Sequence record: MK524178.1
Strand: one strand, 5' to 3'
From: Escherichia phage PHB12
Length of the DNA stretch: 64,000 bases
The translations under genes were made by a program, and so were the position numbers. The first letter of the stretch is position 1. Each line of letters begins with the position of its first letter. Shown here in pieces: positions 12,704-26,032 of the stretch. The notes under the pieces were generated by a model. It was not told where the DNA came from, searched no databases, and was given only the letters and a program-made list of their open reading frames with translations.

Positions 12704-12963
12704 TTAAAATATTCTCGCAGTTGGTCGAATCCACCAATATGACTTCCGTCAGGAGCAAACACTTGAGGCATAGTCAATCCGACTTGTGATTCACGTCCAA
12801 GCTTAACCAGAAGCTCAGCAATTTTCTCATCATCAAAAACACCCTTTTCTGGCATAACATTAATGAATTCGAATGGCTGTTTCTTAACAGTCAGCAATCG
12901 TTTCGCATTATCGCAATAAATGCATTTATGAATAGTAGAGTCGTACCCGTACACTTTAAACAT
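12700..12963 (-). CDS. nrdC: glutaredoxin/thioredoxin NrdC
   Basis: MFKVYGYDSTIHKCIYCDNAKRLL... with CxYC motif; 87 aa from internal ATG at 12961-12963, as in T4 NrdC. Confidence 0.8.
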   Translation of the reverse strand: MFKVYGYDSTIHKCIYCDNAKRLLTVKKQPFEFINVMPEKGVFDDEKIAELLVKLGRESQVGLTMPQVFAPDGSHIGGFDQLREYFK

Positions 12964-13369
12964 TATTTTTCCTTTCATCAATTAAATATGCAACGCCAAA
13001 TACAATACATGTAATAAAACCTGTGATACAGATAGAAACCAACAACACTGTACCAAAGAACCAAATCAAGTTATCTTTAGTAGTTTGTTTGATATCCATC
13101 TCACGAATTTCTATAGCTATCGTATCACCTTTATTCAGAAGCGTATAAAACGATGGCGATACACGCCTGTCAAAAACTCGACCTTGTTCATCTTTATAAA
13201 CTGCAATAAATTCCAATTTAGAATATTTTCCTGTAGATTGTCCTGAAATTAATTCCACTACCTCTACAGGAATTACTTTAGTTTCCATGTAAGTATTCTG
13301 GCTGTTCCAAATGAATGGAATGATGGCAAAAACTAAAGCTGCAATAAAACAACGAAGGCTATATCTCAT
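12956..13369 (-). CDS. membrane protein (two predicted transmembrane segments)
   Basis: 137 aa; hydrophobic N-terminal and C-terminal segments. Confidence 0.4.
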   Translation of the reverse strand: MRYSLRCFIAALVFAIIPFIWNSQNTYMETKVIPVEVVELISGQSTGKYSKLEFIAVYKDEQGRVFDRRVSPSFYTLLNKGDTIAIEIREMDIKQTTKDNLIWFFGTVLLVSICITGFITCIVFGVAYLIDERKNNV

Positions 13370-13674
13370 TATAATGTTCTCTCAAATTTGTGGAAGCATT
13401 TACGGCATTTCAATTTCAAGTTATCAGTGGTCCAGTTAACCAGTTGGACTTGGATAGTTCCACATTCCGGGCATGGATGTTTTGCTGCCGATTTGGCAGC
13501 ATTTTCACGTCGTTCAACCATTTTCATTATTTCGTTCCATGCCGGAGGAACGAACTCTTCTTCACCGTGGATTTTATCTCGCTGAACAAATTCAATCTTT
13601 GAACTATCGTCAATAAACTTAACCAAGCCATGATTAGTGCTCATATCAATATCCTCTAAAAGACGTAGTTTCAT
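13369..13674 (-). CDS. zinc-ribbon protein
   Basis: 101 aa; CPECG...CRKC four-cysteine cluster at C-terminus. Confidence 0.4.
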   Translation of the reverse strand: MKLRLLEDIDMSTNHGLVKFIDDSSKIEFVQRDKIHGEEEFVPPAWNEIMKMVERRENAAKSAAKHPCPECGTIQVQLVNWTTDNLKLKCRKCFHKFERTL

Positions 13675-14624
13675 TATAAAACCTCAATAGCATTTCGTAA
13701 ACCATCAGCTTTTGCATTCAGAGCTTTTAATGATTTAGTTTGTTCTGCAATCTGGGCTTCGACTTCTTTCAGACGAGATTTGAGATATTCGCGTTCTTCT
13801 CTTAAATTATCAACTTTTTCTACTTTAGTCTCTTTAATAGGCTTAGGTTTATACTCGTTAGGGTTCTTCAACTTAATTTGAATGCGAGAACTGTATAACA
13901 TTGAACCATTATCTTCAGTTTCATCATACATTTCTACCACGTCCATAGTCTGTAACATCATACGAAGTTTATAAGACAGCGAACGAACGGTTTTGTTGCG
14001 CTTATTAATTTCTTCGGCTTTCATGGTACCGAGATTACGTGAGTAGTAATAAGGAACCTGGATATCAATTGATAACGATGCAGCGCCATTACCGGTTGGT
14101 TTGAATACTGCAGTAACCCAATCTTTAACATGAACTTTATTTGTACGACCATCACCGCCTGTGAATAATTTACGTGAATGTTTAAAAAGCATATTCACTT
14201 GGTTATTGAATTCACAAGCAAATTTATCAGCAAATTTAGTTTCAGGAATGGTAGATAACCAATCAGCCAAATGAGTCTTTTTAACATCGTTAATAATAGT
14301 AAATTCAACCAAATCAGTTTTAGATGTCACAGATTTAATAAAGCTCGGCTTCATAAAGTTTTTAATGTTATCTCGAGCTACAGTAGAAGATAATAAACGA
14401 GAACGTTTGAACCATTGAAGCAGTGTCCCTAATGAATGAGAATACGCATTCTGAGTATCTTTACAGATATGATTTTCTTGGCCTGTGTATGTACCAAAAT
14501 CGCGAAGAATGCCACTTACTACAACTCGGTGTGGAACATCAAATCCTAATAAACCAGAAGCACGTTGGGCATGAACGTTAGCGATAAGACCTGCAAAATA
14601 ATCAACATAATGTGAACGTGTCAT
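13674..14624 (-). CDS. hypothetical protein with C-terminal coiled coil (first of three consecutive similar-architecture genes)
   Basis: 316 aa; C-terminal about 60 aa heptad-like (EEREYLKSRLKEVEAQIAEQTKSLKALNAKADGLRNAIEVL). Confidence 0.5.
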   Translation of the reverse strand: MTRSHYVDYFAGLIANVHAQRASGLLGFDVPHRVVVSGILRDFGTYTGQENHICKDTQNAYSHSLGTLLQWFKRSRLLSSTVARDNIKNFMKPSFIKSVTSKTDLVEFTIINDVKKTHLADWLSTIPETKFADKFACEFNNQVNMLFKHSRKLFTGGDGRTNKVHVKDWVTAVFKPTGNGAASLSIDIQVPYYYSRNLGTMKAEEINKRNKTVRSLSYKLRMMLQTMDVVEMYDETEDNGSMLYSSRIQIKLKNPNEYKPKPIKETKVEKVDNLREEREYLKSRLKEVEAQIAEQTKSLKALNAKADGLRNAIEVL

Positions 14625-14653
14625 AATATTTTCCTCTCGTTAAGATAGAAAGA

Positions 14654-14682
14654 TTATACTCCAACCATCCTTGGTTGTAAAC
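14654..14682 (-). promoter_or_regulatory. early promoter (GTTTAC-17-TATAAT) with hairpin in spacer
   Basis: Minus strand GTTTACAACCAAGGATGGTTGGAGTATAAT; spacer carries inverted repeat CAACCA/TGGTTG; near-identical copy at 15643-15671. Confidence 0.6.
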
Positions 14683-14686
14683 TGAT

Positions 14687-15616
14687 TTATGATTTTAATG
14701 CATTCATTGCATTAAAAAGTTTAGAGTATTGCAACTGGAGTTTGGTAACTACTTGTTGAGCATCACGAAGCTTAGCTTGTGCTTTGTCAAGTTCAACAGA
14801 CAGTTGGTCCACAGTGGCTTTGATTTGATTATAATAGTAATCTTCGGCAGGAAGAAGACCGTTAGAGATTTCCAGTTTAGTCGACGGTGTGCCGTTAAAC
14901 ATAACAGGTTGTGCTGAAGCTGCATTAATCTTACCGATAGTCGGGGCGACAATAATTGACGCTTCGAACGTTGCATTTTCCTTTTTAAGATTTTGATAGT
15001 ATTCAGAGTCTTTGTGCCACCATGGCGCAGGAACCTTTTTACCAATAGATACACGAGCCTGGATAGCGATATGGCCCTTATTCTTGATAACGTCGATAAT
15101 ATTAAGCTCACGAGAATAAATTGCTTTAATCTGGTGGATATTATCACCTAACACTTCCAACGCTTGGTGGAATACACGAGCAACGTTATCATTCTTAGGT
15201 TTATACGTAAGAGTGAACTCGTTCTCACTGATAACCATGATTTCTAACTTATCGTAAGTATATTTCAAATGTTTCATGTTAATTGCTTGAGGACGAATAC
15301 GAGAAGCAATGGCCATCAGATTGTTAAGGTTATTCCGGAACTGCTTAGCGAAATATTGTCCTTCACCGCCAATACAAAAATTACGAAGTTTCTGTTTGGC
15401 TAATAAACGGCTGAACTCACCATTTTTAATGAACTCTTTAACGGGTGTGTTAGTAACGCATTCAAATTGAGTAAACTTACGAGAAGTAATCCCATAATAT
15501 GAACAGATTTCCTCAATCTCTTCAGGAGTCTTTACAGGCATACGGATAGGATTAGGACCTGGGGTATATGCGTTAGAGGTAAATTCTTTGATAAGTTCTC
15601 TACGTGTAATAGCCAT
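14687..15616 (-). CDS. hypothetical protein with C-terminal coiled coil (second of three)
   Basis: 309 aa; C-terminal coiled coil (DQLSVELDKAQAKLRDAQQVVTKLQLQYSKLFNAMNALKS). Confidence 0.5.
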   Translation of the reverse strand: MAITRRELIKEFTSNAYTPGPNPIRMPVKTPEEIEEICSYYGITSRKFTQFECVTNTPVKEFIKNGEFSRLLAKQKLRNFCIGGEGQYFAKQFRNNLNNLMAIASRIRPQAINMKHLKYTYDKLEIMVISENEFTLTYKPKNDNVARVFHQALEVLGDNIHQIKAIYSRELNIIDVIKNKGHIAIQARVSIGKKVPAPWWHKDSEYYQNLKKENATFEASIIVAPTIGKINAASAQPVMFNGTPSTKLEISNGLLPAEDYYYNQIKATVDQLSVELDKAQAKLRDAQQVVTKLQLQYSKLFNAMNALKS

Positions 15617-15642
15617 TTTATATTCCTCATGTTGAAAAATTT

Positions 15643-15671
15643 ATTATACTCCAACCATCCTTGGTTGTACA
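15643..15671 (-). promoter_or_regulatory. early promoter with hairpin in spacer (copy of the 14654-14682 cassette)
   Basis: Shares TTATACTCCAACCATCCTTGGTTGTA with the 14654 copy. Confidence 0.55.
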
Positions 15672-16667
15672 TCATTCCTTAAGAAGTTTTACTACTTGAA
15701 TAAGATTAGCTCGTTCTGTTTTATTTTTACTGTTTAAGCCTGCTAATCGTGAGATTTCATCATCAGTCTGTTGAATAGTTACATTAAGTTCGCTAATCAA
15801 AGCTTCAAAGTATTTGATTTGCTCAGCATGTTTTGATTCAAATTTCTGAACCGGAATAACGTCCTGGTTTAGTTCATCAATAAGGTCTTTAAGAGCATCT
15901 TCTTGATTGATATCATATTCAACTTCTTTTATTTCTTCAACGAGCTCGTCTTTATATCTAACGTCTTTTAGTCCTGGTGATGGTCCTGAAATCTCTTCTT
16001 TAAGAGTACAAACATATCCAATACGGTATCCAATGCCGTCTCGCTTGATATCAACTTCGTCAATAAATCCACAATGTTTAAGACCAGAGCCGATTAGGTC
16101 AAAATATCCTTGACGTCGTCCTTCAAACGTTACACGAACTACTAAGACAGTTTTACCTGCAACCTTTTGAAGCTCACATTTATAAAAGTCTGTTGAACCT
16201 GAATAACGTGGATGAGTTTTAAAGTTCATCTGACGATCTAGGCCCATTTGTAAGCGTGCTGATACGGCCATAAAACGTGTTTGGTTCTCGTTAAGATGAG
16301 CAACAATCCATTTCAAAGGCATTTTACACTGTTCACGACCGAACAAATCAGTACGTCCTAGATTACGCAGGATGTTGTTAGAGTTAATCATCGACAGAAC
16401 GTTAAGTTTATTCAGCGCGCTGAAGATTCCATCGGCCATTGATTTTCCGTAACCTTTACACGCTTTAATAAGCGCTCGCGGTAGATTAGTATAAATTTCA
16501 GACGGCATATGAAAATCAAATTTACTAGTCAGTAATTGATGAACTTGGATAGCAATTTGCTCATAATTAAGTGCTCTGCGATCATTATGGTCTTTAAACC
16601 ACACTTTAATCTGTGAAGCACATAAACCGTTAATTTCATGTTTTACCGCATCAGATGTAATGCTCAT
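15672..16667 (-). CDS. hypothetical protein with C-terminal coiled coil (third of three)
   Basis: 331 aa; acidic linker then coiled coil (AEQIKYFEALISELNVTIQQTDDEISRLAGL...). Confidence 0.5.
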   Translation of the reverse strand: MSITSDAVKHEINGLCASQIKVWFKDHNDRRALNYEQIAIQVHQLLTSKFDFHMPSEIYTNLPRALIKACKGYGKSMADGIFSALNKLNVLSMINSNNILRNLGRTDLFGREQCKMPLKWIVAHLNENQTRFMAVSARLQMGLDRQMNFKTHPRYSGSTDFYKCELQKVAGKTVLVVRVTFEGRRQGYFDLIGSGLKHCGFIDEVDIKRDGIGYRIGYVCTLKEEISGPSPGLKDVRYKDELVEEIKEVEYDINQEDALKDLIDELNQDVIPVQKFESKHAEQIKYFEALISELNVTIQQTDDEISRLAGLNSKNKTERANLIQVVKLLKE

Positions 16668-16702
16668 AACTATTTCCTCAGATTGAATTGGAACTCAAAA
16701 CC

Positions 16703-16726
16703 ATTATAACCCGTCCTTGGGTAAAG
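16703..16726 (-). promoter_or_regulatory. degenerate copy of the CCAAGGA(T/C)GG promoter cassette
   Basis: CCATTATAACCCGTCCTTGGGTAAAG resembles the 14654/15643 cassettes but the spacer is shortened. Confidence 0.25.
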
Positions 16727-16729
16727 CGT

Positions 16730-17257
16730 TTATGCGTGAACCGTCTTTAAACGTTCTTCAAATTTCCGAAGAGTACTAATACGTTCTGCTTTCTGTTTTG
16801 TATAGTTTGCAATACGTTCTGAAGTGAGAGCGTATCGTTCGTTTACTGTTTCTTTCATGAAGTCAGGGATTTCACGAGAAGCTTTAATTTCATCAAACTT
16901 ATCGAGTACTGCCTGGTCTTCAGCGATTAAATTTTCGTACATCTCGATATCTTTCTTGATAAACTCGATATCTTCCTGGGTTACTTTGGATAAACGAGAT
17001 GCTTTATCCTTTTTGTACTGCTCGTTAGTTTCACGAGACCAGAATAATGTACGTTTTTTGTTAGTGTTTTTGTAGACTTCCACAATTCCAACTGAATCGA
17101 TGATAGCAATCCAATTCCAGTGAGATTTGAAAATCTGACCTCCGTCCACGGTAATCTCGTTACCATAAGCAACGTCATTAAAGAACTTGCTTTGTGCTTC
17201 AGATTTAAATTTACCGTCGTTATAATTTACCAGGTTGAAAATATCTTTAGCGTTCAT
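16730..17257 (-). CDS. hypothetical protein
   Basis: 175 aa; charged C-terminal half; GGAGG RBS upstream. Confidence 0.45.
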   Translation of the reverse strand: MNAKDIFNLVNYNDGKFKSEAQSKFFNDVAYGNEITVDGGQIFKSHWNWIAIIDSVGIVEVYKNTNKKRTLFWSRETNEQYKKDKASRLSKVTQEDIEFIKKDIEMYENLIAEDQAVLDKFDEIKASREIPDFMKETVNERYALTSERIANYTKQKAERISTLRKFEERLKTVHA

Positions 17258-17276
17258 GTTTTACCTCCAGTAGTTG

Positions 17277-17313
17277 ATAGGTCTATAATAACATAACCAT
17301 AGACCTTGTAAAC
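17277..17313 (-). promoter_or_regulatory. promoter-early stem-loop cassette (GTTTAC ... TATTAT with hairpin AGGTCTAT/ATAGACCT)
   Basis: Perfect 8-bp inverted repeat flanking the -10 region; GTTTAC at rc of 17308-17313. Confidence 0.55.
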
Positions 17314-17315
17314 AA

Positions 17316-17657
17316 CTAAAAGAAACTTTTTTCGGTATTTTTTCCACTGAACCAAGCGGATTGGGTAGTATTTTTCCGTTGGTGTTCGATACGAATGCGA
17401 TATTCATTCCTGATGGCGCAGAGTTCACCTCGGAAGTCGCCTGCCAACTTTACCTGCTTTCGGTCTAGATTTATTAAGGCCTGAGTCTTCGCGGCCAAGA
17501 GCAGTCTCTTGTAGTCTCCTTCTTCACAATCGGTTTTATAAACTCTATTGGTATATCCGTTGATAACTTCTTTATCATAGTCCTCGACGGATTGTTTCAT
17601 AGCTTTGGAAAAAGTCTGACCTGCGTTATAAAGATTGTAAATAAATTGTTCAAACAT
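17316..17657 (-). CDS. hypothetical protein
   Basis: 113 aa ORF. Confidence 0.4.
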   Translation of the reverse strand: MFEQFIYNLYNAGQTFSKAMKQSVEDYDKEVINGYTNRVYKTDCEEGDYKRLLLAAKTQALINLDRKQVKLAGDFRGELCAIRNEYRIRIEHQRKNTTQSAWFSGKNTEKSFF

Positions 17658-18679: not shown

Positions 18680-18715
18680 TAGGTCTATAATAACATGTTT
18701 AAAGCAAAAGTAAAC
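18680..18715 (-). promoter_or_regulatory. early promoter (GTTTAC-17-TATTAT), half-cassette
   Basis: ATAGGTCTATAATAACAT motif without the second hairpin arm; GTTTAC at rc of 18710-18715. Confidence 0.45.
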
Positions 18716-18964: not shown

Positions 18965-18993
18965 ATAATAACATATCCTAAAAGCATGTACAC
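18965..18993 (-). promoter_or_regulatory. early promoter (TGTACA-17-TATTAT) with ATAGGTCTATAATAACAT motif
   Basis: Same cassette sequence family as 17277 and 18680. Confidence 0.45.
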
Positions 18994-19021
18994 CACTTTT
19001 TAAAAATATTTTGACCCCCTA

Positions 19022-19039
19022 AAGGGCCCGAAGGCCCTT
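19022..19039 (-). terminator. hairpin terminator candidate (GGGCC-UUCG-GGCCC on minus transcript)
   Basis: Inverted repeat 19024-19037 directly after the stop of the nucleotidyltransferase gene; short U-run. Confidence 0.45.
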
Positions 19040-25573: not shown

Positions 25574-26032
25574 CTAGATTTTAATCACTGCTTTAGAAGC
25601 TTTTCCTGGTAGTCGTTTATTGTTAATAATAGCCATTCTGCATTGAAGAGTCTTCATTTTGAATGCTGGATTTTCACGACAAACTGTAAGTCCTAACCAA
25701 AGATTTCCATCAGTTATTTCTAAACGGCCTGGGCGATATTCGACACCTTCGACAAAATCTTCATCAACATCTGGACGGGCCGGCATTGATAAAAATTCTG
25801 CAACTTCTTTAACATGATTTTTTACTTTACGAAATAATTCAAAAACGTAGTTCTCATCTATTTCTCTCTGGATGGCACGATCTAAGAGATGTTGAGAATA
25901 CTTGATATGAAAGCCTGGTAGTCCAAGAGACTTTGCAGCATCTTTTATACCGGCATTTATTTTGCGGAACTCCGTTTCAAAGATTCGACGGAGTTTATTA
26001 CGGCGGATAAAAACGTCTGAATTGATAGTCAT
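25574..26032 (-). CDS. regB: RegB site-specific endoribonuclease
   Basis: 152 aa; MTINSDVFIRRNKLRRIFETEFRKIN...KYSQHLLDRAIQREIDE... matches T4 RegB as recalled. Confidence 0.85.
   Translation of the reverse strand: MTINSDVFIRRNKLRRIFETEFRKINAGIKDAAKSLGLPGFHIKYSQHLLDRAIQREIDENYVFELFRKVKNHVKEVAEFLSMPARPDVDEDFVEGVEYRPGRLEITDGNLWLGLTVCRENPAFKMKTLQCRMAIINNKRLPGKASKAVIKI

Follow-up and report, generated by a model that had tools for sequence, protein, structure and literature searches.

Repeated promoter cassettes with a conserved spacer hairpin, probably of the PeSL type, in the nrdC.3-nrdC.8-like region of Escherichia phage PHB12

The DNA analyzed here, a stretch of 64,000 nucleotides (nt) of Escherichia phage PHB12 (sequence record MK524178.1; the whole stretch is called the window below), contains three copies of a small intergenic element, here named cassettes A', B, and C, in which a promoter-like sequence encloses a short hairpin. 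The phage belongs to the T-even genus Mosigvirus, and over positions 13400-17400 its identity to phi25-307 and related phages is 98%. All genes of this nrdC.3-nrdC.8-like region are carried by the minus strand, and the cassettes occupy short gaps running from a stop codon to the next Shine-Dalgarno sequence (SD) and ATG (14625-14686, 15617-15671, and 16668-16729). Consistent with a previous reading of the sequence made without database searches (the sequence-only reading), each copy stands directly 5' of one of three genes, of 316, 309, and 331 aa, with coiled-coil-like C-termini (Table 1).

Cassettes B and C share the 26-mer TTATACTCCAACCATCCTTGGTTGTA, which occurs exactly twice in the 64 kb, at 14654-14679 and 15644-15669, while shuffled sequence gave zero matches to it even with three mismatches permitted. 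In a repeat search the direct repeat proved to span 27 nt (14653-14679 = 15643-15669, 100% identity, spaced by 990 nt), and the two copies previously described as nearly identical are in fact an exact repeat, of which no chance occurrence is expected. On the gene strand, copy C reads GTTTAC-AACCAAGGATGGTTGGAG-TATAAT and copy B is (A)TGTAC-AACCAAGGATGGTTGGAG-TATAAT. In a scan with the sigma70 consensus, cassette C scored 11/12 as TTTACA (14681-14676)-17-TATAAT, the top site of the interval from 12 to 20 kb, and cassette B scored 10/12 as TGTACA-17-TATAAT. Both are placed 20-22 nt 5' of an SD/ATG, the 25 nt upstream of them are AT-rich, and cassette B adjoins the stop codon of the upstream gene (15672-15674). 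Their spacers contain a perfect inverted repeat, CAACCA-AGGA-TGGTTG, with 6 bp and a 4-nt loop. Folding predicted -6.9 kcal/mol for the hairpin of cassette B and, for a 61-nt stretch of cassette C, an alternative minimum free energy fold at -9 kcal/mol. Taken together, B and C appear to be near-consensus promoters of the sigma70/T4-early type whose spacers contain a genuine hairpin.

The third copy is of a different make. The sequence-only reading had described a single type, GTTTAC-17-TATAAT with a CAACCA/TGGTTG hairpin, and this description holds for B and C and fails for A' (CTTTACCCAAGGACGGGTTATAAT), which reads GCTTTA-N13-TATAAT and has a weaker hairpin, ACCC-AAGGAC-GGGT, at 16709-16722. 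That a degenerate relative lies near 16703-16726 was nevertheless right: a covariance model of the hairpin-cassette family scores A' (16703-16727) at 24.6 bits, compared to 13 bits for the next-best site, and over the whole window it retrieved as members only the three known copies. The layout of A', cGCTTTA-N13-TATAAT, agrees with that of MotA middle promoters (a TGCTTtA-like box about 12 +/- 1 nt before a TAnnnT -10), in OL960577, a sister genome, the same site is annotated as a middle promoter of the T4 type, and the orthologous site of T4, downstream of nrdC.8, is cGCTTTA-N12-TATAAT. By these features A' is a predicted middle-type promoter, with a MotA box, around a weaker hairpin.

Table 1. 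Cassettes, hairpins, ribosome-binding sequences and genes of the nrdC.3-nrdC.8-like region
Feature	Position	Strand	Description
Cassette A'	16703..16727	-	3' of the nrdC.8 homologue; MotA-box-like GCTTTA 16727-16722, 13-nt spacer, TATAAT 16708-16703
Cassette B	15643..15671	-	5' of the nrdC.5-like gene; TGTACA 15671-15666, 17-nt spacer, TATAAT 15648-15643
Cassette B hairpin	15652..15667	-	CAACCA-AGGA-TGGTTG
Cassette C	14653..14682	-	Predicted early-type promoter 5' of the nrdC.3-like gene; GTTTAC 14682-14677, 17-nt spacer, TATAAT 14658-14653
Cassette C hairpin	14662..14677	-	CAACCA-AGGA-TGGTTG, then GGAG 14662-14659
316-aa gene	13674..14624	-	T4 nrdC.3 homologue, 56% identity; phrog_1435, function unknown
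SD of the 316-aa nrdC.3-like gene	14638-14630	-	GAGAGGAAA
309-aa gene	14687..15616	-	Distant T4 nrdC.5 homologue (24%, E 4e-10), DUF7235
SD of the 309-aa nrdC.5-like gene	15629-15622	-	TGAGGAAT
331-aa gene	15672..16667	-	Distant T4 nrdC.6 homologue (29%, E 2e-18)
175-aa gene	16730..17257	-	T4 nrdC.8 homologue (82%); conserved anchor upstream of cassette A'
333-aa gene			Closest T4 homologue nrdC.10, 77%

Comparison of equivalent sites in Mosigvirus, Tequatrovirus, Dhakavirus, and Gaprivervirus revealed that the outer stem of the hairpin differs by compensatory substitutions. In T4 the element reads (G)CCACA-AGGA-TGTGG(T) upstream of nrdC.4, AGCCA-AGGA-TGGCT upstream of nrdC.3 and, at the ortholog of A' downstream of nrdC.8, TTATACCA-AGGA-TGGTATAA, where the 3' arm doubles as the -10; in Dhakavirus it reads CATCCA-AGGA-TGGATG and in Gaprivervirus (C)TTCCA-AGGA-TGGA(GG). 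The AGGA of the loop never changes, and the inner CCA/TGG is departed from only by A' (CCC/GGG) and the T4 nrdC.4 copy (CACA/TGTG). In a set of 12 distinct variants, in which the three outer pairs that bear most of the covariation lie outside the pattern used for collection, 91.7% of the pair cells were complementary, compared to 66% in shuffles (0/500 reached as high a value) and 21-47% after sliding of the partners. Both sides had changed at 4/6 pairs, with a covariation score of 0.58 versus 0.13. The T4 genome alone holds three different outer stems, which speaks against a palindromic protein operator and for a structural requirement. Moreover, the T4 nrdC.3 copy has poor -35 and -10 boxes (ATTTAA/TATAAA) and its stem is still compensated, suggesting that the hairpin is selected in its own right. 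The substitution pattern thus indicates that the hairpin is under structural selection.

An unbiased scan of IMG/VR with the pattern TTTAC..CAAGGATG..TATAAT gave 59 matches, 36 of them without a stem beyond CA/TG; all T-even matches had stems of 4-7 bp, and the others had at most 4 bp, except for one marine T4-like contig (L043 4714-4742) with a 7-bp stem, TTTAC-TTCA-AGGA-TGAA-GTATAGTATAAT, upstream of a clamp-loader gene. The neighborhood of this contig is related to cyanophage and Pelagibacter myoviruses, and by its sequence the element may be a distant relative of the hairpin-promoter type. Generic hairpins with a GGA loop were not enriched over shuffles in the window and 56 kb of T4 (35 versus 37 expected), so the element is a specific small family and not a genome-wide motif. 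A search of 12-20 kb against Rfam at E of at most 10 returned only chance matches to microRNA and small nucleolar RNA families. A Rho-independent terminator was also considered and has no support from the sequence: the terminator scan did not report the hairpin, folding gave no stronger indication, and a GC-rich stem with a U-run directly behind it is lacking.

Copies of the cassette are dispersed over several loci. Mosigvirus genomes carry 3-4 copies each. T4 has a further, fourth copy, GTTTACTTTACCACAAGGATGTGGTATAAT, 5' of rIIA.1 (NC_000866 2433-2450, locus L029), which is identical to the nrdC.4 copy at 29/30 positions, 48 kb away. Extra copies were found downstream of dexA in Mosigvirus-like contigs (L048 1324-1352 and 1881-1909, L050 601-629), where they precede a tandem of two or three small paralogous genes (...DQWVEDG...); these match copy C over about 57 nt, with the flanks ATAAATCAG...CTTTCTATCTTAAC, from the region of the upstream stop codon to just before the SD. 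One Mosigvirus-like contig bears both CAACCA and CATCCA stem variants, 557 nt apart.

Gene content changes at the same places. The T4 order is nrdC.5, cassette B, nrdC.4, cassette C, nrdC.3; in the window it is the nrdC.6-like gene, B, the nrdC.5-like gene, C, and the nrdC.3-like gene, without nrdC.4; and in Dhakavirus and Gaprivervirus it is the nrdC.5-like gene, B, and the nrdC.4-like gene, without nrdC.3. The differences among genera therefore fall exactly at the cassettes. As a separate observation, in Gaprivervirus VR20 (L010 7437-7717) and the Dhakavirus loci the nrdC.6-like gene is separated from the nrdC.5-like gene by 200-280 nt of unannotated DNA, which appears to encode small hydrophobic peptides and not a cassette.

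These features are those of a class of element that has already been described. Arbiol et al. 2010 (PMC2839356) defined promoter-early stem-loop (PeSL) elements as a strong sigma70-like early promoter with an AT-rich upstream stretch and a stem-loop, concentrated in hyperplastic regions, the stem-loop mostly lying between -35 and -10 or overlapping the -10; for the PeSLs of RB49 and phi1, promoter activity, terminator activity, and excision as mini-circles were demonstrated (PMC2839356). As in RB49 and phi1, the cassettes of the window combine, between genes, an AT-rich stretch, an early promoter, a stem-loop, and an SD/ATG, and in both cases many repeats in hyperplastic regions flank non-essential genes of unknown function and coincide with insertions and deletions between relatives. 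Comeau et al. 2014 (PMC4122927), on the elements of PST/T4 and nt-1/KVP40, report PeSLs in PST/T4, of the same T-even group as the window, with the consensus TTTACW-N17-TAYWAT, including "degraded" PeSLs at about 43-51 kb in the nrdC region of PST, and also describe middle-promoter versions (PmSL), which resemble copy A'. Since the intergenic site, the sigma70-like promoter with AT-rich stretch (B and C), the stem-loop, and several near-identical copies per genome at gene-content differences are all found here, we assign B, C, and A' to the PeSL/PmSL type, to which they add a Mosigvirus example. The predicted promoters as such resemble those of T4, with the strong UP, -35, (TGn), and -10 elements of early promoters, or, for A', the MotA box and -10 of middle promoters (Hinton 2010, PMC2988021); the class definition in that review is without a hairpin and mentions only "additional regions of consensus". 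No usable map of T4 transcription starts or termination was found in the literature searched.

We consider it fairly probable that PeSL-type regulatory cassettes of a T-even phage explain the locus. Each unit would consist of an AT-rich stretch, a promoter, a hairpin of 5-8 bp between the -35 (or the MotA box) and the -10, and the SD and ATG of the gene that follows, so that a sigma70 early promoter (B, C) or a MotA-type middle promoter (A') may give each gene of the hyperplastic region its own transcription start. The hairpin would lie upstream of the start of its own cassette and be present solely on read-through RNA from upstream promoters; as a result it could act only on such RNA or on single-stranded DNA. 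On read-through RNA it would most likely be an insulator, either by attenuation or pausing or as a tag for a GGA-specific factor, and a GGA loop that never varies points more to a factor reading its sequence than to simple termination. As DNA, the near-identical copies may serve as short portable homologies between which genes are gained, lost, and swapped, and recombination would homogenize the copies. In particular B and C, which as direct repeats 990 nt apart flank the 309-aa nrdC.5-like gene on both sides, are candidates for excision of the PeSL type.

Several observations weigh against this explanation. In DNA this rich in AT, promoter-like matches are no more frequent than in shuffles (23 versus 26 expected), so the promoter call relies on score, position, and family resemblance and not on statistics, and promoter activity of the cassettes is accordingly a prediction made from their consensus, their position, and the family they belong to. 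With -5 to -9 kcal/mol and non-significant z-scores, the hairpin is weak; GAGUAUAAU, which follows it, has no U-tract, and the terminator scan passed it over while it did pick the GC-rich UUCG hairpin at 19013-19039. Templated mutation in short quasi-palindromes, known in T4, can give compensatory changes without RNA selection and could contribute to the compensatory pattern. Sliding identity among close Mosigvirus relatives showed no exchange bounded by cassettes: the sole divergent patch, 14796-14965 in the C-terminal part of the 309-aa gene, shares only 39-69% identity with two Mosigvirus-like contigs whose identity elsewhere is 95-100%, and is a local mosaic replacement unbounded by cassettes. 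The stems also differ from the known ones. Those of RB49 are long, G-run/C-run, and terminating, whereas those described here are 5-8 bp, of mixed sequence, with the invariant AGGA loop and no U-tract. Because the stem is weak, lacks the U-tract, and escapes the terminator scan, the terminator function of the G/C-rich RB49 elements may not transfer; in addition, the RB49 promoter is of the TTGACA type and that found here of the GTTTAC type. Finally, in the text of Comeau et al. 2014 (PMC4122927) the PST/T4 stem-loops lie just upstream of the promoter and have AGNA...TCNT stems, which is another geometry, and the text does not describe an in-spacer CCA-AGGA-TGG hairpin, its covariation, or its invariant loop.

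The invariant loop is also the starting point of the best of the other explanations, in which RegB would target the hairpin together with its 3' flank: the looped GGA|U, the adjacent GGAG, or both would be cut on read-through early RNA, separating the cistrons and leaving intact only the transcripts initiated at the cassette promoter, in which the site is absent. We hold this to be unlikely as an explanation of its own, and it could also be a sub-mechanism of the PeSL explanation. The window does encode a RegB homologue (25580-26032, minus strand, 76% to T4 over 151 aa). RegB cuts GGAG/U in intergenic early RNA, with the strong-site consensus GGAGRAYARAA, and S1-independent cleavage requires an unpaired GGA with a constrained fourth nucleotide (Uzan & Miller 2010, PMC3014915). 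Here, similarly, the GGA is in the loop, with its fourth base, U, in the closing pair, and a GGAG with the A-rich 3' context of such substrates follows the stem directly in the Mosigvirus, Dhakavirus, Gaprivervirus, and T4 nrdC.3 copies; in cassette B, GGAGUAUAAUA from 15652 fits the strong-site consensus at 9/11 positions. This match is unremarkable, however, since a score of at least 9/11 is reached by 18/104 of the minus-strand GGAGs of the window. Classical RegB sites are SD sequences, whereas the cassette site is upstream of the predicted transcription start of the downstream gene, and the GGAG is missing from several copies, namely those of T4 nrdC.4, T4 rIIA.1, and downstream of nrdC.8. 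The closing pair is not constant either, as a U-to-C change (AAGGAC) recurs in three lineages, and secondary structure is usually protective against RegB (PMC3014915).

A second alternative concerns the origin of the repeats. The sequence-only reading had taken the three copies as a sign of duplication of gene-plus-promoter units, and had named similarity confined to the core, without flanking homology, as what would argue against it. This is what was found: the 27/27 identity stops abruptly, the DNA flanking the core and the coding DNA of the B and C units are unrelated, and pairwise BLASTP among the 316-, 309-, and 331-aa proteins detected no similarity. The lack of flanking homology leaves a recent duplication of gene plus promoter unsupported and already largely refuted. 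On the other hand, family alignments built from 28 related loci and compared profile to profile (hhalign) related the nrdC.3 family to the nrdC.4 family with 97.8% probability (E 9e-13) and the nrdC.4 family to the nrdC.5 family with 92% (E 6e-7), and gave no relation of the nrdC.6 family, to which the 331-aa gene belongs, to any of the three. By these profiles the nrdC.3 and nrdC.4 families are clearly remote paralogues and the nrdC.4 and nrdC.5 families probably so, so that two of the three genes beside the cassettes plausibly go back to an ancient duplication; in T4, moreover, nrdC.4 and nrdC.3 are adjacent, with a hairpin cassette before each. An ancient event cannot account for 27/27 identity beside genes diverged beyond recognition, which is better explained by dispersal or homogenization of a small PeSL cassette. 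Near-identical cassettes before unrelated genes at the distant rIIA.1 and dexA loci point in the same direction, and the compensatory evolution of the stem argues against a passive hairpin. That the repeats are remnants of a tandem segmental duplication in which the hairpin is passive is thus improbable.

The inverted repeat might also be a feature of the promoter spacer at the DNA level, a protein operator or a supercoiling-sensitive palindrome within what would simply be a strong promoter, with no role in RNA. Its 3' arm partly overlaps the T4 early-promoter consensus upstream of the -10 (gtggTAttaT, as quoted in the OL960577 annotation), and the inner CCA/TGG is nearly invariant, both of which would fit. 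We nevertheless give little credence to this explanation: the outer arms vary between copies of one genome and yet remain complementary, and in the T4 nrdC.3 copy the hairpin has outlasted its promoter boxes. A stem of 5-6 bp is not known to extrude as a stable cruciform. A palindromic DNA operator as such was rejected because of the differences in the outer arms among copies in one genome.

Least probable, in our view, is that the global regulator CsrA of the host binds the hairpin on read-through mRNA of the phage, perhaps bridging it to a GGA in the downstream SD: the consensus obtained by in vitro selection is RUACARGGAUGU, with ACA and GGA invariant and the GGA in a hairpin loop (PMC4347634), and the ACA is present solely in the T4 nrdC.4 and rIIA.1 copies, most others having CCA. 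Those two copies do hold ACAAGGAUGU, the exact 10-nt core in the same structure; every copy retains CAAGGAUG or CAAGGAC, much as in CsrB-type repeats, where a short hairpin has GGA in its loop between flanking CA...UG, and most downstream SDs have a GGA about 30 nt away. But AGGA is also a plain SD-like core and GGA is common in T4 SDs, there are just 3-4 sites per genome against a background of unenriched GGA-loop hairpins, the literature searched contained no link between CsrA and T4, and, unlike the CsrA hairpins, the cassettes belong to phage mRNA.

If the PeSL explanation is correct, the PeSL concept gains a Mosigvirus example, in which cassettes would both drive and insulate accessory genes and supply the homology for their shuffling. 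Beyond the published PeSL, the T-even subtype has a structurally selected stem-loop with an invariant GGA loop, and the same hairpin is found in predicted promoters of early and middle type and is retained where the promoter has decayed. As a tentative and less likely extension, CCA-AGGA-UGG might be a dedicated RNA recognition element, through which a GGA-specific factor (RegB, CsrA, or 30S/S1) acts wherever a cassette separates two genes, to cut or silence polycistronic RNA, with each shuffled gene expressed only from its own promoter; such a post-transcriptional insulator in a promoter spacer would possibly be conserved across T-even genera and perhaps in marine T4-like phages such as that of contig L043. 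Should the hairpin prove to be a target of RegB or CsrA, this would explain the transcriptional independence of the tightly packed, individually promoted accessory genes of T-even phages.

Among the other genes of the region, counterparts of T4 nrdC.4 and nrdC.1 were not found in the window, and Pfam and PHROGs returned nothing but families of unknown function (DUF7235 and phrogs). A gene for an nrdC.7-like membrane protein lies at 12956-13369, between the nrdC.2 homologue and nrdC, while its place in T4 is between nrdC.8 and nrdC.6. A second type of repeated early-promoter cassette was observed on the minus strand at 17285-17312, 18687-18714, and 18965-18992, with the common sequence ...ATGTTATTATAGACCTATC (a TGn-extended -10 and a conserved start region); the copy at 17285-17312 has an 8-bp stem, AGGTCTAT...ATAGACCT, across the -10. 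Further upstream, at 19013-19039, a GC-rich UUCG hairpin, GGGCC-TTCG-GGCCC, followed by a T-run scored highest in the terminator scan and is probably the upstream boundary of the transcription unit.

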